A DNA stretch of 64,000 bases, from IMG/VR virus record IMGVR_UViG_3300045051_000909, positions 64,001-128,000 of that record. One strand, 5' to 3'. A program made the position numbers and the translations under genes. Position 1 is the first letter of the stretch. Every line of letters begins with the position of its first letter. Source of the DNA: a virus (taxonomy: Duplodnaviria > Heunggongvirae > Uroviricota > Caudoviricetes). This document shows positions 2,557 to 19,234 of this stretch, piece after piece. The notes below the pieces were generated by a model that was given only the letters and a program-made list of their open reading frames with translations, did not search any database and was not told the origin of the DNA.

Positions 2557-3912
2557 ATGCGCGACCAATTTCTACGCGGTGCAGCGACAGCGAGCACCAA
2601 GTTCGCTGTTGACGTCCGTGACGTAGCGATGATGGAGCAGATTCTCCACGCGCTCGTTCCCGCAGGCCAGAAGATGCCGGTTCCGCTAGGCTCCATTACA
2701 GGCCTACATAGCGGTATGACAGATACGGGGGACAGTCCCATCGCGCGGGGCCTTCTTACCGGCGCAGGCATGCATTTTGGGGATCGTGCTGGCCAAGCCG
2801 TTGGTGGTACGGTGGGTGGCCTTGTGGGTACGGGTGCCGGCATGCTTGCCCGCGGTCTTGGCGCTGGCCCGCACGCTGGCGGGAATATTTACAACTTCAG
2901 TTCGCTGCTCGGTAAAGCCTTGGGCGGTTACGTCGGTGCACAGGAAGGTGCACACGCAGGTCAGGCGTTTGCGGATCGCAATAAGCCAAAGCCTGAGCCG
3001 AAGAAGCCCGAAGTCGAGAAGAAGTCCGCACTAGATGAGTTCTTCCTCAAGGAAGCAGCGGGCTTCGGTGCCAAGAGCATGGGCACGATGATGCGCCAGC
3101 AGGCGCTCAACGACGCCTTCCGCGCTGCACCTCGCCAGGGACCGCAGATGCCCGTAGCGCGCCAGGTCCCCATGGTCCAGATGGCACAGCAGAGCGGCGG
3201 TCGCAATATCGCGCTCCCTGGCGCCAACGCGCCGTCGCTCGAGCTCGACATGACGCCGAAGCAGTTCGCCTATGGCTACAAGGGCGGCAGCGAGAAGCAG
3301 GCGTTCACACTATTCGACTTGATCTCGCATGGTGTGATGGGTGCTGCGTGGGGTAACGCTACCTCAAACCCAGAGCACCAGCTACTAGGAACTACGCTGG
3401 GTGCCTTAGGCGGTATGGGGGGTATGGTAGGAGGGGCGCTCACCCCCACAATCCCAGGAAACGGAACACCTAGCATTATTGCCAATGCAATGCGGCCTGT
3501 CGCAGGCGCTGTTGCGGGCGGCGCTCTCGGCGGGGCAGCGACACGACTCCTTCCGCGCCACGAAGAAGAGAAGGGTGCCGCCGACGCTTCGGCTTCCTTC
3601 GGTCTCCAGAAAGAAGCAATTGCGCCGCTCCTCGGCCTTGCTGCTCGCGCCGTGCCGTGGATGGCTCGCACAGCGGTTCCATGGTTGGCCAAGAACCTCG
3701 GCAAGGGCGCTCTCGTCAATGGTGGCATCAGTGCTGGGACGTCTCTGGCCCAAGGACAAGGGGTTGGTCAATCGCTCGCCAGTGGTGTTGTCGGAGCAGG
3801 CGCCGGTATGATCAAAAATCCCGTGCTGAGCGCTGGCGCCAACATGGCAGGCGGCATGGCCGTCGATAAGCTCATGGGTCCTAAAGCATCGATGGGCAAT
3901 GGTCTCAACTGA
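2557..3912 (+). CDS. Gly/Ala-rich multi-module protein with K-x-A linkers (candidate virion internal protein)
   Basis: AGGAG SD; hydrophobic Gly-rich blocks separated by STKFA, EKKSALDEFFLKEAA, SEKQAF, GLQKEA; virion role is inference. Confidence 0.7.
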   Translation: MRDQFLRGAATASTKFAVDVRDVAMMEQILHALVPAGQKMPVPLGSITGLHSGMTDTGDSPIARGLLTGAGMHFGDRAGQAVGGTVGGLVGTGAGMLARGLGAGPHAGGNIYNFSSLLGKALGGYVGAQEGAHAGQAFADRNKPKPEPKKPEVEKKSALDEFFLKEAAGFGAKSMGTMMRQQALNDAFRAAPRQGPQMPVARQVPMVQMAQQSGGRNIALPGANAPSLELDMTPKQFAYGYKGGSEKQAFTLFDLISHGVMGAAWGNATSNPEHQLLGTTLGALGGMGGMVGGALTPTIPGNGTPSIIANAMRPVAGAVAGGALGGAATRLLPRHEEEKGAADASASFGLQKEAIAPLLGLAARAVPWMARTAVPWLAKNLGKGALVNGGISAGTSLAQGQGVGQSLASGVVGAGAGMIKNPVLSAGANMAGGMAVDKLMGPKASMGNGLN

Positions 3913-3920
3913 GATGCCTG

Positions 3921-6900
3921 ATGATCGAATTCGAGAAGGTTGCGCTTCACGCGCTTGACCGTCTTCGGGAGCGGACGCAGCTCGACCCGGATCTGATTCC
4001 TCTGCTCGAGGCCGAGGCTGACCGCGTTTCTAACGAGGTCCCGCCCGGCAAGTACTGGCTGCCGTTGCGCGACGAGCATGGACGGGTCATCGCTATCGCC
4101 GCGTTCAAGACGGTGCAGACCTACTACGGTCACAAGCTCGTCTTGGCCACGGTCCTCGCGCCAACGATGGTGCCACAAGGTACCTCGCTTGAGCACCTGA
4201 TGCACCCGCCACAGTTGGCCAAGGCTGCGGCATATGCTCCGGGCATCAAGGAGAAGGGCGACAAAGGCGACCATACCGACCTTCCCGTTGGTTTGGCTGA
4301 CTTTGTAATCCATAAGCATGACGCCGAGCGCGCGGGGCTGCACTACGACATCCGTATCGGAACACCGAAAAGCGGCCTCATCTCCTGGGCCACTCGTGAA
4401 AACCTCCCAGCACCCGGGGCGCGCATCACGGTCTTCCGTCAACCCGTGCATGAGTATTCATACAAGGACTTTGAAGGGAAGATCGAGTCTGGTTACGGCA
4501 AGGGCGACGTTAAGATCCACGACTCCGGGAAGGCCATCGTTACACAGGTTAAGCCCGAGCTGCTTCAGTTCACGCTGGGTCACAAGAAGTACCCACAGCG
4601 GTTCACCCTGATCCCCTGGAAAGAGGATCAGTGGTTGATGATGAACAGCACGCCTGTCTCACCGATCCCCTATAAGAAGCAGCACTACAAGACGCTTCCG
4701 CCCTCGAAGGCCGAAGACTTCCTGAAGAAGATTCCGACGGGAAGCTCTGTACAAGCGAAGATCGACGGGGCAGCGGGGCTAGTCACCTTCAAGAATGGCA
4801 AACTGGAAGTTGCGTCCTACCGCACGGCGGGGCCGACAGGGTACCCGATCATCCACACTGAGCGCGTCTTCGGTGGTCGCCCGGAAGTATCTCTCCCGGC
4901 ACACCTGAAGGGGACGATCCTTCGCGGCGAAATTTACGGCGTAAGGGACGGCAAGGTCATTCCGCCGCAGGAGCTCGGGGGCATCCTCAACGCAACCACC
5001 AACAACTCGCTAGAGATGCAGAAGGAGCGCGGCATCTCGTTGAAGATGATGGTGTTCGACATCCAGCAGTACGGCAAGAAGCCGACTGCGGGTATGCCAT
5101 ACAATGAGCGTCAGAAGCACGTCGATGAAGTTCTCAAGCATCTCCCGAAGGATCGGTTCCACGTCCCGGAAGAGGCCACGACACCGAAGGGCGCGCTGGA
5201 CCTTTTTCACAAGGTTCGTTCTGGCGGCCATGCGCTTACTCACGAAGGTGTTGTGGTGCACCTGCCTGAAGGTAAGCCCGTAAAGATCAAGTTCGTAGAC
5301 GACCACGACGTCTACATTACTGGCTTCTTCCAAGGAGAGGGCAAGTACGCCAAGGGTCACGTAGGCGGCTTTACCTACGCCTTCTCTAAGGACGGGAAGA
5401 CTGTTGGCCGTGTGGGTACCGGCTTGAGCGATGAATTGAGGAAAGATATGCACGAGAATCCCGACGATTTCATCGGGCGCGTAGCACGCGTGCGTTCACA
5501 GGAAGTGCTTCCCTCCGGGGCACTGCGTGCACCTTCGCTCATTGCTCTGCACGAGGACTACCCCGCCGCCAAGACGGCGGGGGAGATGTTGGAGCAGTTC
5601 CTCATTAAGATCGCGGATGACGCCGTAGCGCCGCAGATCCCCTCACACGAGTACTCGCCTGCGGAACTGCGCCTACTTCAACAGCGCTTTGGCCGTCTTC
5701 AAGGTTACCTGCGGGAGCACGGGGCCTTCGCCGGAACAGGGCACCAGCGCATCGTTATCCCCAAGAACGTATTGACTGAGGCCGACATCAATCAGTTGGG
5801 GTTCAAGCCTGTCAAGATCGCCATCCCTGAATCGGGACAGGATCGTTTTGAGTCTTTCCGGCACCCGGACAACCTCTTCCACATCCACTCGCATCCCGAG
5901 GGGTGGACGATGCACGAGGACCGTCACCCCGCCTCGACGATGCTCATCACCAAGCTTCAGCACCCCTGGGACAAAGCCAAGGCTTTTTTTCAGGGTCTCC
6001 CGCATGTCGTTACTGAGGGTATGCCAGGGCTCTTCTACTACACCAAGGGCAAGGTGCGTGACGCGCGCTCGACAGCGCAGGCAGTGCTCGAGGAAATGGA
6101 TCCTGGTGTCATTAAGCGCTTTCAAAGCTGGAAGCCCTCACCAAGCTATGCGCCGCCACCTGAGGTCACCGAGGAGTTGAAGGCGGCTGCCGAGAAGCTG
6201 TTCGGCGGAAAGGCCGATGGTCGGTCTGACACCGAATTCAATCCTGCGGCAATTGCGGCGGGCGTGCAGGTAGAACGCGAGCATACGTCGAACAAGGCGG
6301 TCCAGAAGGAGATTGCGAAGGACCACCTGTCCGAGGACCCCTCGTACTATCAGAAGCTAGAGAAGATGGAGAAGAAGGGGTTTGAGCAGTTTCTATTGAA
6401 GTCCGCGAAAGAAGCTCCAGCCCCGAAGACCGAGAAGCCGAAGTCGACCGAGAAGCCCAAGGCCGAGCCGCCAAAGAAGGCAAAGCCTGCGCCGAAGCAT
6501 GAGCTCAACATCCCCAAGGATCAACCCAATTACCAGCACACGCAGCTCTTCACAAAGCTGCTCGAAAAATCTCCGGTTCCGGTGAAGCTGGAACCGAAGG
6601 CGTACACGCACCCGGAGGACAACGGGTTTTATGACTTCGTCAACAAGCGGATCAGACTCCTGTCACCAAATCACGATTCCTTGGCACACGAAATAGGCCA
6701 CGCGCAGTACGATGAGACCCCGCTCGGATGGGCGCTGCAAAGTCGTGCCCTGTATCCGCAGATTTGGAGTACTCCGTTCGCGTCAATAGCAGGTGGCGTA
6801 ACATCGGGCCTTCTTCGTGGCTCTGGATCCTTGAAAGGACAGGGTACAGCGTCCCTGCTCAATGAGGCCGCCGGGCTACTAGCACCACTTCTACTTAGCG

Positions 6901-7730
6901 CCCCTGCTTTGTGGTCGGAGTACAACGCTACAACGCGCGGGCGAAAGCTCCTTGAGGGCGTGGGCGCAACGCCTGAGGAACTGGATCACTACGACAAGGG
7001 CCTCTGGAAGTCATATAAGTCATACTTGACCCTCCCGACTATCTCCGCGCTAGGCGGCGCCGTTATGTACGGCCTGAGCGCCTTGAACGCTCCTAAATTT
7101 GGATCAGAGAAAACCGCCGACTGGAAGGACATCCTCCTCGGCGCGGGCAAGGGCGCTGTGTTACCGGGGCTTTTCGGCGCAGCGGCTGGCGCCCTGACGG
7201 ACAGTGAAGACCGGGCGCGTGGAGCCCTGAAGGGTGGCCTCACAGGGGCAGCTATTGGTGCCATCCCCGGCGGGATTCAAGGACACCTCGAAGGCAAAGC
7301 GACAGCCGCTAACCAAGCGCTCTGGGGGCATAAGGATGTCGCCGATCACTATACACAGCAGGCAGGTGACGCAGCTCGGGCTATCGAACGCTGGCAATAT
7401 TCGCCGCCGGATGTGAAACTGCCTCCTGGGGGGCGTACTGCGGTTCGTACGCCGCAGCTACACGACCTAGGTAAGCTATTCGACCGCTACGACTTTCATA
7501 CGCAGCAGGCAGAGCTTGCTAACACGTTGGCGGACCAAGCGCGTGCGCACTGGCAACACCTTGGTGGGCAGGCTGCTGGCATGAACAAGTGGCGGTGGGG
7601 CGCGGTGCCTGCGGGTATGCTCGCGGGCGGGCTCGCAGCCTACGCACCTGAGAAGCCGGAGTGGGAGAGTGGTGGCAAGGTCTCATCGCTTCGGAGGTTA
7701 CTTCATCAAGGAAGCGAAAGTTGTCACTGA
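3921..7730 (+). CDS. multi-domain protein: LigD-type 3'-phosphoesterase + ATP-dependent DNA ligase + DUF5661-like + HExxH metallopeptidase + Gly-rich modules
   Basis: FVIHKHDA..LHYDIRI and HEYSYKDFEG (PE); QAKIDG, EGVVVH, KIKF, GRVGTGL, ALRAP (ligase); GVQVEREH..IAKDHLSEDPSYYQKL (DUF5661); AHEIGH. Confidence 0.85.
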   Translation: MIEFEKVALHALDRLRERTQLDPDLIPLLEAEADRVSNEVPPGKYWLPLRDEHGRVIAIAAFKTVQTYYGHKLVLATVLAPTMVPQGTSLEHLMHPPQLAKAAAYAPGIKEKGDKGDHTDLPVGLADFVIHKHDAERAGLHYDIRIGTPKSGLISWATRENLPAPGARITVFRQPVHEYSYKDFEGKIESGYGKGDVKIHDSGKAIVTQVKPELLQFTLGHKKYPQRFTLIPWKEDQWLMMNSTPVSPIPYKKQHYKTLPPSKAEDFLKKIPTGSSVQAKIDGAAGLVTFKNGKLEVASYRTAGPTGYPIIHTERVFGGRPEVSLPAHLKGTILRGEIYGVRDGKVIPPQELGGILNATTNNSLEMQKERGISLKMMVFDIQQYGKKPTAGMPYNERQKHVDEVLKHLPKDRFHVPEEATTPKGALDLFHKVRSGGHALTHEGVVVHLPEGKPVKIKFVDDHDVYITGFFQGEGKYAKGHVGGFTYAFSKDGKTVGRVGTGLSDELRKDMHENPDDFIGRVARVRSQEVLPSGALRAPSLIALHEDYPAAKTAGEMLEQFLIKIADDAVAPQIPSHEYSPAELRLLQQRFGRLQGYLREHGAFAGTGHQRIVIPKNVLTEADINQLGFKPVKIAIPESGQDRFESFRHPDNLFHIHSHPEGWTMHEDRHPASTMLITKLQHPWDKAKAFFQGLPHVVTEGMPGLFYYTKGKVRDARSTAQAVLEEMDPGVIKRFQSWKPSPSYAPPPEVTEELKAAAEKLFGGKADGRSDTEFNPAAIAAGVQVEREHTSNKAVQKEIAKDHLSEDPSYYQKLEKMEKKGFEQFLLKSAKEAPAPKTEKPKSTEKPKAEPPKKAKPAPKHELNIPKDQPNYQHTQLFTKLLEKSPVPVKLEPKAYTHPEDNGFYDFVNKRIRLLSPNHDSLAHEIGHAQYDETPLGWALQSRALYPQIWSTPFASIAGGVTSGLLRGSGSLKGQGTASLLNEAAGLLAPLLLSAPALWSEYNATTRGRKLLEGVGATPEELDHYDKGLWKSYKSYLTLPTISALGGAVMYGLSALNAPKFGSEKTADWKDILLGAGKGAVLPGLFGAAAGALTDSEDRARGALKGGLTGAAIGAIPGGIQGHLEGKATAANQALWGHKDVADHYTQQAGDAARAIERWQYSPPDVKLPPGGRTAVRTPQLHDLGKLFDRYDFHTQQAELANTLADQARAHWQHLGGQAAGMNKWRWGAVPAGMLAGGLAAYAPEKPEWESGGKVSSLRRLLHQGSESCH

Positions 7731-9141
7731 GCTCAAGCCCCACCAACAGCGTGTAGTTGAGCGCATGCAAGACCCCGATCAGCGCGGCCTGGTGGCCGTG
7801 CACGGTCTTGGCTCGGGTAAGACGCTCACGAGCATCGCTGTTGCTGACGCCCTCAAGCTTCCGGCGGACGTGGTGGTTCCTGCGGCGCTCCAGGGCAACT
7901 ACCAGAAGGAAGTTGCGAAGCACACCGACAAGCCGTTCCCGATGAATCTCCAGAGCCTCGAGCTGACGGCTCGCAAGGGTGGCGGCTCGTTGCAGAACCC
8001 GCTTTTGATCGTGGACGAGGCTCACCGTGTGCGTAACCCCGGGAAGACGCAGTCGGCGTTGATGAAGTCTCCGGCCAGCAAACGGCTACTCCTGACGGGC
8101 AGCTTGATGTACAACCACCCTGGCGACATGGCTGCACCGATCAACTTGGTGGCGGGCTCCGGAACCCTGCCTTCGAAGCAGAACGAGTTTGAGAATCAGT
8201 TTATCCAGGAGCGGCGTATCAGCCCTGGCCTCTGGGGAGAGCTCGTCGGTAAACCGGGCCAGACGAAACTCGAGATCAATCCTCTGATGAAGCCATACTT
8301 GGAGAAGGTCCTCCACAAGTACGTCGACTACCACCCGGGGTCAACGGAGAACTTCCCGCAGACACAGGAACAGACGCTAAAGGTTCCGATGTCCGGGCGG
8401 CAGCGCAAGATCTACGACGCAGTTATGGACGCCGCTCCGCCTTGGGTGAAGGATAAGATTCTTCGGAATCTACCTCCCACGAAAAGCGAAGCAAAGGAAC
8501 TCAACGCCTTCCTAACAGGCATCCGGCAGGTGTCGAACAGCACGGCTGCGTACGATCTGAAGAACCCTGCGGAGAGCCCGAAGATCGACCGGGCTGTGGC
8601 GGAGCTCAAGCAAATGCTTGAGGCGAATCCACGCGCAAAGGCCATCGTCTACTCCAACTTCCTGCCTTCGGGTATCAACCCCTACAAGGCCAAGCTGGAT
8701 GAGCTGAAGGTCCCTTACGGTGAGTTCACAGGAGAGATGCCGCGTCTAAAGCGCGACCAGCTCGTTCGTGATTACAACGAGGGCAAGCTGCGCGCGCTGC
8801 TACTGTCCTCGGCCGGCGGCGAAGGCCTCGACCTAAAGGGTACGCGCCTGATCCAGTTGCTCGAGCCCCACTGGAACGAAGAGAAGTTGAAGCAGGTACA
8901 GGGGCGCGGCATTCGCTTCAAGTCACACGACGACCTACCCCCGGAGGAGCGGAACGTCTTGATTCAGCGCTTCCTCGCGACTAGACCCCGGGCCGGGTTC
9001 TGGGAGAAACTACGTCTCAAGGATCCTGGCACGTCGGTAGACGAGTATCTGCACGACATGGGTGCGCGCAAGGAAGAATTGAAGGGCCAGTTCAAGGCAC
9101 TGCTCGCACAATCGGAAAAGGAGAAGACACATGCTGCGTAA
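7669..9141 (+). CDS. SNF2/SF2 helicase
   Basis: LKPHQQ, HGLGSGKT, IVDEAH, LLTGS, SSAGGEGLDL, QVQGRGIR. Confidence 0.9.
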   Translation: MVARSHRFGGYFIKEAKVVTELKPHQQRVVERMQDPDQRGLVAVHGLGSGKTLTSIAVADALKLPADVVVPAALQGNYQKEVAKHTDKPFPMNLQSLELTARKGGGSLQNPLLIVDEAHRVRNPGKTQSALMKSPASKRLLLTGSLMYNHPGDMAAPINLVAGSGTLPSKQNEFENQFIQERRISPGLWGELVGKPGQTKLEINPLMKPYLEKVLHKYVDYHPGSTENFPQTQEQTLKVPMSGRQRKIYDAVMDAAPPWVKDKILRNLPPTKSEAKELNAFLTGIRQVSNSTAAYDLKNPAESPKIDRAVAELKQMLEANPRAKAIVYSNFLPSGINPYKAKLDELKVPYGEFTGEMPRLKRDQLVRDYNEGKLRALLLSSAGGEGLDLKGTRLIQLLEPHWNEEKLKQVQGRGIRFKSHDDLPPEERNVLIQRFLATRPRAGFWEKLRLKDPGTSVDEYLHDMGARKEELKGQFKALLAQSEKEKTHAA

Positions 9142-9730
9142 CATCGCTGTTTTTTTTTGTCGGTTGGGCGTAGTCGCGTACCTTAGCCTCCGGCTTTACC
9201 AGGTAAAGTCGTGGTTGTATCGCTGGGTGTTCGAGCGCAAGTATCGGGATACGCCGCTTCCTACGTACACCAGTATGGATGACCTGGTGGCATTCATCCA
9301 CAAGCTAATCTGGGTAGCCGATTCCTGGCAGCAACTTTGGGACGCATTCTCGTACCCCGGCAAAGTCCAGTGGATCGGGACCGAGGGTGATCGGCGAGTC
9401 GGCGATTGCGATGAGTTCGCGATCTACAGCGCCACCGCGATCCTGAAGGCAAACGCAGCTGGATACCTCAAGGAGTACCGGAATCCGCGCATCCTTACCG
9501 CTTGCTGGATGGACTCCAAGGGAAAGCTGGGAGGCCATAACGTCTGCCTGCTTGAGCGCGACGGTGGGGTCGCTTACATGGATTACGGCGACCCGATTCA
9601 CTTCGACACGCTACAAGATCTGGTCGCGAGCGTTATCGCACGCTACACACGCGAGGAGAACGGCGCGTGTATTGGATGGGGCGTCACGGATCCCGTGACG
9701 CTCCGCCCTATCGAGGTTCACTGGTCCTAG
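9131..9730 (+). CDS. membrane-anchored transglutaminase-like Cys protease
   Basis: N-terminal hydrophobic segment; GDCDEFA, GHNVC, YMDYG give a Cys-His-Asp triad. Confidence 0.65.
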   Translation: MLRNIAVFFCRLGVVAYLSLRLYQVKSWLYRWVFERKYRDTPLPTYTSMDDLVAFIHKLIWVADSWQQLWDAFSYPGKVQWIGTEGDRRVGDCDEFAIYSATAILKANAAGYLKEYRNPRILTACWMDSKGKLGGHNVCLLERDGGVAYMDYGDPIHFDTLQDLVASVIARYTREENGACIGWGVTDPVTLRPIEVHWS

Positions 9731-10065
9731 AGTCCGAAGCGCTCCCAGCGAGAGTCCACACCGGCATCCCGGAATAGGTCCACCATACTCCGTGCGCGGT
9801 ACATATTAAACGAGTGGACGACGATGATCGGTGGGAGTTTCTCACGCGGAAACTGCTCGGGGTCTACAAGGGTGTTGGCAAATACGGTGCCGTTCATCCC
9901 GTATCCGAGATCGTGATCCAAGGTCGCTGCGTCAAACCGAGGGCCATCCCTCATGCAGGCGAGGGCCTCTTCGGCGGTGTAGCAGTGTACACACTCATCG
10001 GCTTCATACTTCAAGGCGAAGTACCGATGGCGAATCTCCTCGTCATCAAGAATCAAGATCCGCAT
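9727..10065 (-). CDS. cyclic-phosphate-processing receiver-like domain protein
   Basis: GGAGG SD; MRILILDDEEIR, TLDHDLG, NGTVFA, IVVHSFN. Confidence 0.75.
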   Translation of the reverse strand: MRILILDDEEIRHRYFALKYEADECVHCYTAEEALACMRDGPRFDAATLDHDLGYGMNGTVFANTLVDPEQFPREKLPPIIVVHSFNMYRARSMVDLFRDAGVDSRWERFGL

Positions 10066-10094
10066 GTTGTACCTCCAGAAGATTCTAGGTGTTT

Positions 10095-10124
10095 TTGACA
10101 AAAGCCCCTAAAGTCGACTAGGTT
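10095..10124 (+). promoter_or_regulatory. possible sigma70-like promoter
   Basis: TTGACA-N18-TAGGTT in a divergent intergenic gap. Confidence 0.4.
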
Positions 10125-10154: not shown

Positions 10155-11144
10155 GTGACCGTGAACAAGACCTGTACACGTTGCCTCCATGAGTACCCTG
10201 CCACCCCCGAGTACTTCTTTCGCCTCGCACGTAGTGAGGACGGCCTTAGGAATCAGTGTAAATCCTGTCTCGGGAACCAGCCTAGTAAGCCAAAGCCCCC
10301 ACCCGCTATGCAGCGCGAGCCTACCATGCCACCAGCGAAACGGCCTCGTAAACCGTCTGGGCAGCCTAAGGTGGCGCGCGCGCCCGACCTGAAAACAATA
10401 CTCATCCTACCCGACCTGCATGTCCCCGAACATGACCAAATCGTCTGGGACGCACTTCTTCAGTGGCTTCGTGAACACCCCGTATCAGAAATCGTGTTGC
10501 TGGGCGACTTCCTGGAACTCGCTAGCTGCTCACAGCACCCTGGCACCGACTTCACCTCTCTCAACGAAGACTTCAAAGCAGGGCGACAAGTACTTAAGGA
10601 GCTCCTGACAGCTTGTCCGAAAGGACACATCACACTCCTTGAAGGCAATCATGAGACACGATTGGCGCGCATCACTGCGTCAAAATTGCCACAGCTGGCT
10701 GACAATTTGTCAATCGCAGAAGGTCTGCGACTCGCTGAAATAGGGGCAACATGGGTCCCTGAGGATGAGCAACCCATTACGCGCGGGGACCTTGAGCTCA
10801 TTCACGGACACCAGGCTCTAGGTGAAGGCTTCGGAGCGCGCTACCACGCCGCCAAGATGGTCGACGTCTATGGTGAGCCGGGGCATACCGTCGTCTACGG
10901 TCACACGCACAAGCAGCAGGCCATCCTGAAGGCCAGTAAGCGCGGGAATCAGTTGGGCCTAGGACTTGGTGCGTTGCGCACTATGCGCCCAGACTGGCTG
11001 CACGGGCGTGAGGCGGGCTGGTGCCATCAGTTCGCAGTGGCCTGCGTTCGCGCAAATGGGCATACAGACGTGATGGTCGTCTCCATTAGGGACGGCGCAT
11101 TCGTCTGGGACGGTAAGCTATACACCGGACGACGTCATGGCTGA
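10155..11144 (+). CDS. calcineurin-like metallophosphoesterase with N-terminal Zn ribbon
   Basis: CTRC..CKSC; PDLH, LGDF, EGNHE, IHGH, YGHTH. Confidence 0.85.
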   Translation: MTVNKTCTRCLHEYPATPEYFFRLARSEDGLRNQCKSCLGNQPSKPKPPPAMQREPTMPPAKRPRKPSGQPKVARAPDLKTILILPDLHVPEHDQIVWDALLQWLREHPVSEIVLLGDFLELASCSQHPGTDFTSLNEDFKAGRQVLKELLTACPKGHITLLEGNHETRLARITASKLPQLADNLSIAEGLRLAEIGATWVPEDEQPITRGDLELIHGHQALGEGFGARYHAAKMVDVYGEPGHTVVYGHTHKQQAILKASKRGNQLGLGLGALRTMRPDWLHGREAGWCHQFAVACVRANGHTDVMVVSIRDGAFVWDGKLYTGRRHG

Positions 11145-17962: not shown

Positions 17963-19234
17963 CTACTCACGTACCCGATGCTTCATCTCTCGTTCGAGTC
18001 GGCGCTGGTTCTTCCACGCCTTCTCGCTTTCCTTACGGTCGCGCCTCATCTTCTCGTCGTGCCCCTTGACTGTCAAGAGAGAGTGAAGCTCGAACATCGG
18101 CGTAACAAGGTCCGCTTGGTTCTGCATGACGACCTCGATGTCCTTGTAAGCCATCGCGATCTCGTCAAGCACGCCCTTGCCGATGTGGCACTCGACGCCT
18201 TTGGTGGACTCGCGGAGGTCGTCGAGCGTGAACGTCTTGTTGGCCTTGGACCGGCTCATCTTACGTCCAGCGCCATGGCTGGCGGACATCAGGCTCTCGG
18301 GATTGCCGAGGCCTTGCACGATGAAGCTCTTGCGCCCCATGGCCCCAGGGATGATGCCCCACTGACCTTCCTTGGCTTCGATGGCGCCCTTGCGTGCGAC
18401 GATCAGTTTCTCGCCATCGATAACTTCCTCGGTGGCGTAGTTGTGATGGCAGCTGACCCGCATATCGACGGGAGCGTAATCGAGACCCTCAGCGTGCAGA
18501 GCCGACAGCAGAAGGTCCATCATCAGTTGCCGGTTCAGCCGCGCGTACTCCTGCGCGGTCTGCATGTCACGCCAGTAATCGGCGAAGTCAGGGGACTCTC
18601 GCGGAAACACGGCGATGCGCTTGTCCGGAAGATCCCGGTTGATTGGGTGTTCCTCGGCCAGGTGCGCATAGCTATCGGCGACCTCCTTGCCGAAGTTGCG
18701 TGAACCCGAGTGCAGCATGAGCCAGATGCGCCCTTCTTGATCCTCGCACACCTCGATGAAGTGATTCCCCGAACCGAGGGTTCCCATTTGACGCTTGGCA
18801 TTCTCGAGGGAACAGCGAGACTGCCTGGTCTGCTTGACGCGCTCCCACAGCTCCTCGAACTCAGGAGCCTTGGTGCCCGGATGCGCCGTCTCATGCGCAC
18901 AGCCGGTACCATTGGGGATGAACTCCTCGATGCGTAGGCGCAGACCCTTGAGGTCCTTCGGCAACATCGCGGGTGTGAGTGAGGTGCGCAGAGCATCCAT
19001 CCCGCATCCGATGTCAACACCGACGATGCCCGGGGCAACGGCGTCCTTCAACGCCACGACGCTCCCGACGGGGACGCCGAACCCCGCGTGCACGTCCGGC
19101 ATGGCGCGCACGTAGCGTGCGCTCGGCAGATTGGCGGTGTTACGAAGTTGCGTTAGCGCCTCGGACTCCACCTCATGGAGCGGCGCCCACAGCAGTACAG
19201 GCACTTGCTGCCCGTCCATCCGTGAGATCGACAT
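17963..19234 (-). CDS. rtcB: RNA 2',3'-cyclic phosphate/3'-phosphate-5'-OH ligase RtcB
   Basis: MPDVHAG, GVDIGCG, GTLGSGNHF, LHSGSR, HHNY, RKGA, SHGAGR, DEIAMAYK. Confidence 0.96.
   Translation of the reverse strand: MSISRMDGQQVPVLLWAPLHEVESEALTQLRNTANLPSARYVRAMPDVHAGFGVPVGSVVALKDAVAPGIVGVDIGCGMDALRTSLTPAMLPKDLKGLRLRIEEFIPNGTGCAHETAHPGTKAPEFEELWERVKQTRQSRCSLENAKRQMGTLGSGNHFIEVCEDQEGRIWLMLHSGSRNFGKEVADSYAHLAEEHPINRDLPDKRIAVFPRESPDFADYWRDMQTAQEYARLNRQLMMDLLLSALHAEGLDYAPVDMRVSCHHNYATEEVIDGEKLIVARKGAIEAKEGQWGIIPGAMGRKSFIVQGLGNPESLMSASHGAGRKMSRSKANKTFTLDDLRESTKGVECHIGKGVLDEIAMAYKDIEVVMQNQADLVTPMFELHSLLTVKGHDEKMRRDRKESEKAWKNQRRLEREMKHRVRE

Follow-up and report, generated by a model that had tools for sequence, protein, structure and literature searches.

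In T4 and the phiKZ-like giant phages, the head protease processes internal and ejected proteins at a short motif (L/I-x-E or S/A/G-x-E) that is common to scaffold, protease, and cargo; N-terminal propeptides are removed, and enzymes are delivered from the head. Phage P1 carries DarB, a capsid-borne antirestriction helicase protein. In Pseudomonas-type LigD, a phosphoesterase (PE) domain is followed by an ATP-dependent DNA ligase domain. PE strips 3'-phosphates and trims 3'-ribonucleotides to yield a 3'-OH, which the ligase requires at a nick, together with a 5'-phosphate (PMC3082917). Polyvalent proteins hold many unrelated enzymatic modules on one polypeptide, shuffled between relatives, and are predicted to be processed and delivered with the DNA (Iyer et al. 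2017, PMC5512222). Here, we describe P0001, a gene in a 64,000-nucleotide stretch of phage DNA (the window; bases 64001-128000 of the 194,266-bp IMG/VR record IMGVR_UViG_3300045051_000909, rated complete by CheckV), whose 1269-amino acid (aa) product joins a LigD-type 3'-phosphoesterase and an ATP-dependent ligase. Comparison with homologues identifies aa 104-553 as a self-contained heal-and-seal cassette, an interchangeable module of a phage polyvalent protein. Whether this cassette is cleaved from the protein and loaded into the head is a question on which we are evenly divided. The modules of P0001 and the two genes that flank it are as follows.

2557-3912, plus strand: P0002, a 451-aa Gly-rich protein directly upstream of P0001, with four K-x-A sites and without family match
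3921-7730, plus strand: P0001, a 1269-aa multi-module (polyvalent-type) protein containing the PE-ligase pair
3921-4220, plus strand: module A (aa 1-100), a conserved N-terminal module without family match
4221-4229, plus strand: K-A-A linker site (aa 101-103), immediately 5' of the cassette start A-P-G-I
4230-5579, plus strand: PE-ligase cassette (aa 104-553), with K-A-A and K-T-A as its limits
4299-4655, plus strand: LigD-type 3'-phosphoesterase domain, from Pfam, PDB alignment, and homologue conservation
4710-5270, plus strand: ligase nucleotidyltransferase domain, with motifs I (KIDG, K280, nucleotides 4758-4769), III (E337), IIIa (D380), and IV (E442-G443)
5283-5558, plus strand: ligase motif V (K455, K457), OB domain, and motif VI (R536, P538)
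5571-5579, plus strand: K-T-A linker site (aa 551-553), just past the conserved cassette end H-E-D-Y-P
5673-6170, plus strand: module C (aa 585-750), a His-rich domain, H-x-H-x-H-P ... H-x-D-x-H
6258-6377, plus strand: DUF5661 domain (aa 780-819; Pfam)
6534-7094, plus strand: HExxH region, with H-E-I-G-H at nucleotides 6687-6701; possible zinc peptidase
6855-7187, plus strand: three hydrophobic Gly-zipper-like segments (aa 979-997, 1036-1054, and 1071-1089)
7669-9141, plus strand: P0003, an SNF2-family helicase, a separate gene in the +1 frame

The cassette sits between the core modules A and C, ahead of the DUF5661 domain, the HExxH region, and a membrane-like tail, of which the Gly-rich part runs on from the hydrophobic segments to the stop codon. 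A preliminary description of this DNA had read positions 4290-5570 (aa 124-550 of P0001) as a LigD phosphoesterase directly followed by an ATP-dependent ligase. Both enzymes are indeed present and adjoining, and their catalytic residues are intact, as judged by Pfam, PHROG, PDB alignment, and conservation. In Pfam, LigD_N (PF13298) matched aa 131-231 with 45.5 bits against a cut-off of 31.1 (50.8 bits in the scan of the genome), and DNA_ligase_A_M matched aa 264-450 with 29.7 bits against a cut-off of 26.2; DNA_ligase_OB_2 was found at aa 471-540 with 21.5 bits, below its cut-off of 28. PHROG 114 (ATP-dependent DNA ligase) matched aa 257-565 with an E-value of 1.6e-31.

When compared with the PDB by phmmer, the PE aligned with the archaeal enzymes CkoPE (3p4h) and MbaPE (3p43) and with the PE of Pseudomonas LigD (PaePE, 3n9b), with His133, His141, Asp143, Arg145, His177, and Tyr181 all in register. 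By this alignment, His133, His141, and Asp143 would be metal ligands and Arg145 and His177 phosphate binders, and Tyr181 is conserved too. All six of these active-site residues are essential by mutagenesis (PMC3082917). They are invariant among 32 cassette homologues, which were aligned with the window cassette (31-56% identity) and with one true LigD (26%). The ligase motifs align as well: Asp282 (motif I), Arg301, Glu337 (III), Glu442-Gly443 (IV), and Lys455 (V) are invariant among the 32 homologues, and Lys280 (I), Asp380 (IIIa), Lys457 (V), and Arg536 and Pro538 (VI) are conserved in at least 90% of them.

A model of aa 100-575 made with AF2 had a mean pLDDT of 90.4. The LigD-PE superfamily has an eight-stranded beta-barrel fold; in the model, the region of aa 124-243 was beta-rich and confidently predicted, and the 50 Foldseek matches listed for the model were all ligases, none of them a PE. 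These included archaeal, T4, human Lig1, LigD, and Lig E ligases (E-values of 7.5e-15 to 1e-11), with a TM-score by target of 0.59 against the Mycobacterium LigD ligase 6nhx. A profile of the cassette family, compared with the PDB, matched CkoPE 3p4h at 1e-29, archaeal and Lig1-type ligases at 2e-14, and the ligase domain of Mycobacterium LigD at 1e-7. On these comparisons, the PE is a genuine member of the LigD-PE superfamily and the ligase a genuine ATP-dependent DNA ligase, and both look active. The ligase is a minimal enzyme of nucleotidyltransferase and OB domains and, judged by profile scores, does not appear to belong specifically to the LigD clade.

The cassette shares with bacterial LigD PE-LIG and stand-alone archaeal PE enzymes the same PE family and the same six essential residues, and, as in LigD, the PE is placed directly N-terminal to an ATP-dependent ligase, which would couple 3'-end healing to sealing. 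Unlike LigD, it has no polymerase or primase domain and no Ku partner, and it is a phage-encoded internal module of a multi-domain protein, set between K-x-A linkers. The absence of Ku and of the LigD polymerase, first noted for the window, now extends to the whole 194-kb genome, in which Ku (PF02735) and the LigD Prim-Pol domain (PF21686) found no match; a Pfam search of P0001 itself did not find Prim-Pol either, nor was Ku found in 25 large cassette-bearing phage genomes. Without Ku and without the polymerase, the pair is, as far as its gene content tells, not a LigD-type system for non-homologous end joining (NHEJ).

A search with the whole protein returned 75 relatives of 700-2200 aa, nearly all of which aligned over aa ~105-550 only, mostly as one block (BLAST, single high-scoring segment pair), with the cassette in an N-terminal, middle, or C-terminal position. 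Searching with the cassette alone showed that it is widespread: it was found in at least 200 longer proteins, and in IMG/VR, it occurs at 61 phage loci, many on contigs of 150-226 kb and mostly from phages of 150-230 kb. Among the 120 listed of these at least 200 proteins, the most common partner domains were SNF2 (~34), 2H-SAK (~26), InPase (~24), Nudix (8), and GNAT (7), followed by fewer C39-type peptidases, HD domains, RNA ligases, and inteins or Hint domains. In three of the 120 (P0270, P0306, and P0309), the cassette was fused to cell-wall hydrolases, either a GH24 lysozyme with LysM or a glucosaminidase.

In relatives, module A is usually N-terminal and directly precedes module C. The closest relative, P0029, corresponds to P0001 minus the cassette and has the SNF2 helicase fused in frame, indicating that the cassette of this phage is an insertion between modules A and C. 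Judged by these alignments, PE and ligase are one cassette of ~450 aa that always recurs as a unit, and P0001 is, by its architecture, a polyvalent protein, with several unrelated effector domains that are combined differently among relatives. The earlier reading of P0001 as a polyprotein therefore holds, as it is built of multiple modules and has a conserved K-x-A linker on each side of the cassette. Inserts of 100-450 aa were found near ligase motif III or in the PE of some cassettes (P0014, P0025, P0030, P0033, P0053, P0288, P0291, P0302, and P0308), and several of the insert-bearing proteins are annotated with intein, Hint, or LAGLIDADG domains. Such inserts suggest that homing elements target the cassette, which is common for essential phage enzymes.

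The likeness to polyvalent proteins extends to the partners, as SNF2 helicases, InPase, 2H, GNAT, Nudix, peptidases, and portal fusions are found in both (PMC5512222). Unlike in the polyvalent proteins of that study, no MuF or portal gene adjoins P0001, and modules A and C and the K-x-A linker code are without a match in Pfam, including its LPD families. In a term search, "LigD" appeared neither in the full text of PMC5512222, where the mentions of "ligase" that were found concern RNA ligases, nor in the jumbo-phage survey by the same group (PMC7824862). A literature search on LigD, phosphoesterase, phage, and virion together gave nothing, nor did one on DUF5661. Nowhere in the searched literature did we find the PE-ligase cassette described as a mobile module that is widespread among phage polyproteins, nor any description of its K-x-A delimiters.

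Among internal cassettes, 39 of 50 (78%) have a K-x-A in the 12 residues that precede the cassette start (A-P-G-I/L-P), and 33 of 46 (72%) have one within 18 residues downstream of its end (H-E/L-D), compared with 5% upstream and 7% downstream in random windows of the same proteins; this enrichment is partly inherited, the proteins being homologous. Where the cassette is terminal, the protein starts or stops within a few residues of the K-x-A linker points. K-x-A also brackets module C, and more sites are present in P0001 at aa 754, 827/830, and 1064. Its recurrence at boundaries of different kinds argues for a general delimiter, and we lean towards the view that the enzyme is freed by cleavage at K-x-A. 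This would resemble the processed proteins of T4 and the phiKZ-like phages, in that a short recurring candidate cleavage motif is common to head proteins and cargo. The motif differs, being K-x-A with A, S, E, or D in the next position; cleavage and packaging are predicted here; and the enzyme carried would act in DNA repair.

A possible link to the head comes from genes outside the window. A probable head-maturation protease is encoded at genome positions 183709-185754 (PHROG 18299, E-value 5e-11), and a tail sheath gene was also found outside the window; capsid, portal, and scaffold genes were not identified by Pfam or PHROG. On the 3' side of the protease and an endonuclease VII gene lies a gene for a 230-aa protein (genome 186157-186849; L007:18157-18849) with seven K[TESAQH]A sites where 1.8 are expected, several of which read E-K-T-A-A/S, making it a candidate scaffold with repeated cleavage sites. 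We counted the same pattern in this genome and in that of G001, a distant cassette-bearing phage that has 15 of 261 genes in common with this one:

This genome, head block: 30 sites observed, 19.0 expected, p 0.012
This genome, P0002 and P0001: 10 observed, 4.8 expected, p 0.025
This genome, rest: 70 observed, 71.5 expected, not enriched
G001, head block: 32 observed, 13.1 expected, p 7e-6
G001, cassette protein: 7 observed, 2.1 expected, p 0.006
G001, rest: 91 observed, 80.2 expected, not significant

A single protease acting on the head proteins and the polyprotein alike would account for enrichment in both, and the polyprotein would then be located in the prohead. Further support for packaging is indirect. 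In three relatives (L004, L006, and G001), the gene shares the strand of the RNA-polymerase/head block and precedes it by 9-14 kb. In another, P0140, Pfam shows a Mu-type portal (Portal_Mu) joined to InPase and module C; a phmmer search with Mu gp29 for the portal fusion found nothing. The lysozyme fusions of the cassette, in turn, make sense for proteins that leave the particle. The early GGGTATAAG promoter occurs almost only ahead of minus-strand genes and is absent before the P0001 operon. A k-mer search for a late promoter returned only this known early GGGTATAAG motif.

The head block adjoins a pair of RNA-polymerase genes (genome 168209-175822; L007:209-7822), also outside the window. 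The first (168209-173074) encodes a 1621-aa fusion of beta and N-terminal beta' with an InPase inserted at aa 607-728, and a second RNA-polymerase-subunit gene follows; similar fusions of ~1480 aa are present in L004 and L006.

From these observations, a mechanism can be proposed. At a strand break, the Mn-type LigD-family PE would clear away 3'-phosphates or 3'-ribonucleotides, after which the minimal ATP-dependent ligase would seal the nick. P0001 would be cut at its Lys-x-Ala linkers, probably by the head-maturation protease, to release a PE-ligase enzyme of ~50 kDa. If so cut, this enzyme would be packed into the prohead and reach the cell together with the DNA, a step for which we see equal grounds for belief and doubt. 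There, 3'-blocked nicks and breaks of the incoming genome, caused by damage accumulated in the particle or by host attack, would be repaired before or alongside gene expression. SNF2, the most frequent partner of the cassette, is encoded immediately downstream, which brings DarB to mind as a large helicase-containing protein proposed to act in cis on incoming DNA. Unlike with DarB, the partner enzymes carry out end healing and ligation, not methylation, and the helicase is a separate gene in the window.

The preliminary description had suggested that the pair could mend breaks made by restriction or CRISPR nucleases, and this part of its rationale is weak. Restriction and Cas nucleases leave clean 3'-OH/5'-P ends, which need no PE; the presence of a PE points instead to ends that are 3'-blocked or carry a 3'-ribonucleotide. 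More fitting substrates would be oxidative or desiccation breaks in soil-borne particles, the products of glycosylases/lyases or metal-independent nucleases, and ribonucleotide-terminated strands. The stretch itself is contained in four rhizosphere DNA metagenomes, and there was no RNA dataset among the sequencing runs listed as containing it. More tentatively, and with somewhat less than even confidence, we suggest that the polyprotein is targeted to the prohead and cut at K-x-A, and that the PE-ligase enzyme, the SNF2 translocase, and others enter with the genome as a repair kit that fixes 3'-blocked breaks before expression. The breaks could stem from damage built up in the dormant particle or from host nucleases, and the kit would do for the virion what stored Ku/LigD repair does for bacterial spores.

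Several observations weigh against a cleaved and packaged enzyme. The K-x-A motif was defined after the data had been inspected, some of its occurrences clearly fall within folded elements (one is found 5 aa ahead of the helicase motif L-K-P-H-Q), and its enrichment in this genome is modest. Except for the protease, the head genes were assigned by position and by conservation with G001 only. P0001 lies ~100 kb from the head block in this genome and no virion gene adjoins it, and the membrane-like tail and HExxH region of its product could instead tether the protein inside the infected cell. The cassette was found in no cultured phage among 50,697 phage records, in which a megablast search with the gene gave no match and tblastn gave distant ligase matches only, plus DUF5661 in a 735-kb uncultured phage. 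Finally, the neighbors of P0001 are genes for nucleic-acid repair and NAD-centered conflict, together with a tRNA array, and homologs in L001/L003 are likewise adjoined by HAD-PNKP, YAcAr, and cREC. The neighboring genes in the window are:

637-1140: HAD_PNKP phosphatase
1144-1623: HNH endonuclease
1620-1973: YAcAr SLOG
9727-10101, minus strand: cREC_REC
10155-11144: Lar-like zinc ribbon fused to a metallophosphatase
17963-19234, minus strand: RtcB

This neighborhood, which speaks of nucleic-acid metabolism rather than of virions, favors an alternative in which P0001 is an unpackaged intracellular multi-enzyme and the cassette a housekeeping DNA ligase with a 3'-end cleaner, serving replication, recombination, and repair. 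K-x-A would then be a mere linker feature or would be cut by the HExxH region within the same protein. As expected of a replication enzyme, the cassette is the only match to an ATP- or NAD-dependent DNA ligase in the 194-kb genome. No other ligase was detected in 17 of the 25 large cassette-bearing genomes, a count of limited sensitivity as the Pfam ligase model misses many cassettes, and a sister phage with a cassette-less homologue has a separate, unrelated ligase gene. In the remaining 8 of 25, however, a second ligase coexists with the cassette (ATP-dependent in four, NAD-dependent in four), and the roles may differ between phages. The effector-type shuffling, with its lysozyme and portal fusions, is also hard to explain for a replication enzyme, and the linker motif is co-enriched in the head-module proteins of two distant genomes. 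We regard this alternative as a serious possibility, to which we give something like one part of belief against two of doubt. As the only phage-encoded DNA ligase, the cassette probably also seals nicks in general during infection; whatever else is true, an intracellular role in replication or repair is likely, and it is compatible with packaging and does not require it.

A role in RNA repair was also considered, in which the PE clears 3'-phosphate or cyclic ends and the ligase joins RNA or RNA-DNA ends after attack by anticodon nucleases or RNases, working with the neighboring HAD-PNKP, cREC, and RtcB. The setting invites it: HAD_PNKP, YAcAr, cREC_REC, Metallophos, and RtcB lie within 20 kb, as do the 38 tRNA genes and the tmRNA gene of the phage, RtcB and Ro60/TROVE are nearby in relatives, and 2H-SAK and RNA-ligase domains are frequent fusion partners. 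In the jumbo-phage survey, the HAD-PNKP/YAcAr/cREC-type set is treated as RNA repair and NAD-centered conflict (PMC7824862). The ligase, however, is of the DNA-ligase type (DNA_ligase_A_M plus OB, with DNA ligases as its nearest structures), and RtcB is already available for RNA sealing. The PE enzymes characterized so far work on DNA whose strands end in a 3'-phosphate or a 3'-ribonucleotide (PMC3082917). Together, these points make a role in RNA repair improbable.

We dismiss as very improbable a Ku-independent, NHEJ-like joining of double-strand ends, such as circularization of the injected genome or rejoining of restriction cuts, which would draw on the PE as the signature domain of LigD and on the LigD-like domain order, because Ku and the LigD polymerase are missing as described above and the ligase profile lies nearer to archaeal, Lig1-type, and minimal phage ligases than to Mycobacterium LigD, minimal ligases being nick sealers.

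Should the capsid indeed deliver the enzyme, the cargo of phages would include DNA repair in addition to polymerases, modifiers, and antirestriction factors, and this would offer them a way to survive both damaged virion DNA and nicking-type defenses. The K-x-A delimiters form a testable protease code, from which one could forecast how hundreds of phage polyproteins that lack annotation are divided into mature products. Being compact, at 450 aa, the heal-and-seal enzyme might also find use as a reagent.

The other modules of P0001 were less readily assigned. Neither Pfam nor PHROG gave a match for modules A and C, the HExxH region, or P0002, and the ESM Atlas gave no usable match. An exhaustive search with module C returned 5616 cluster representatives at E-values of at most 1e-3, in which it occurs alone (117-300 aa) or within proteins of up to 2454 aa. 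Its invariant positions are G..T..R, P-E-x-G-Q, H-x-H, H-x-D, and H...E-G-x-P, and two more His residues and a Trp are present in at least 90%. This pattern suggests that module C is a metal enzyme; its AF2 model (pLDDT 92.9) had no match in the PDB (best Foldseek E-value 0.38; best Z of 3.3 in a wide VIA-align search).

The HExxH region had no family match at E-values below 5 and showed similarity solely to the N-terminus of P0080, and a homologue search with aa 860-1269 found nothing but the protein's own fragment. Its H-E-I-G-H-A motif is followed by at least three Gly-zipper-like segments (window 6687-7187), an arrangement resembling membrane-embedded zinc peptidases of the Zn_peptidase_2 type. 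One relative carrying module C has a Zn_peptidase_2 match, and C39, Hint, or Zn_peptidase_2 domains were found in relatives. P0002 has little in common with a syntenic 498-aa gene of L003 beyond an F-G-L-Q-K-x-A context and the segment following it, and may be further processed cargo or a membrane-active protein.

The boundary between P0001 and P0003 was examined as a possible frameshift or assembly error, which was rejected. P0003 starts with a GTG at 7669, preceded 8 nucleotides upstream by GGAG, and overlaps the end of P0001 by 62 nucleotides. In P0005, P0029, and P0084, the helicase is fused in frame behind K-T/V-A and then Ser, 17-21 residues before L-K-x-H-Q; the start of P0003 lies 21 residues ahead of L-K-x-H-Q, equivalent to this boundary in the fused relatives. 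As an independent metagenome contig crosses the junction with zero differences, and a ribosome-binding site and GTG are present right at the module boundary, the split represents a genuine gene fission.

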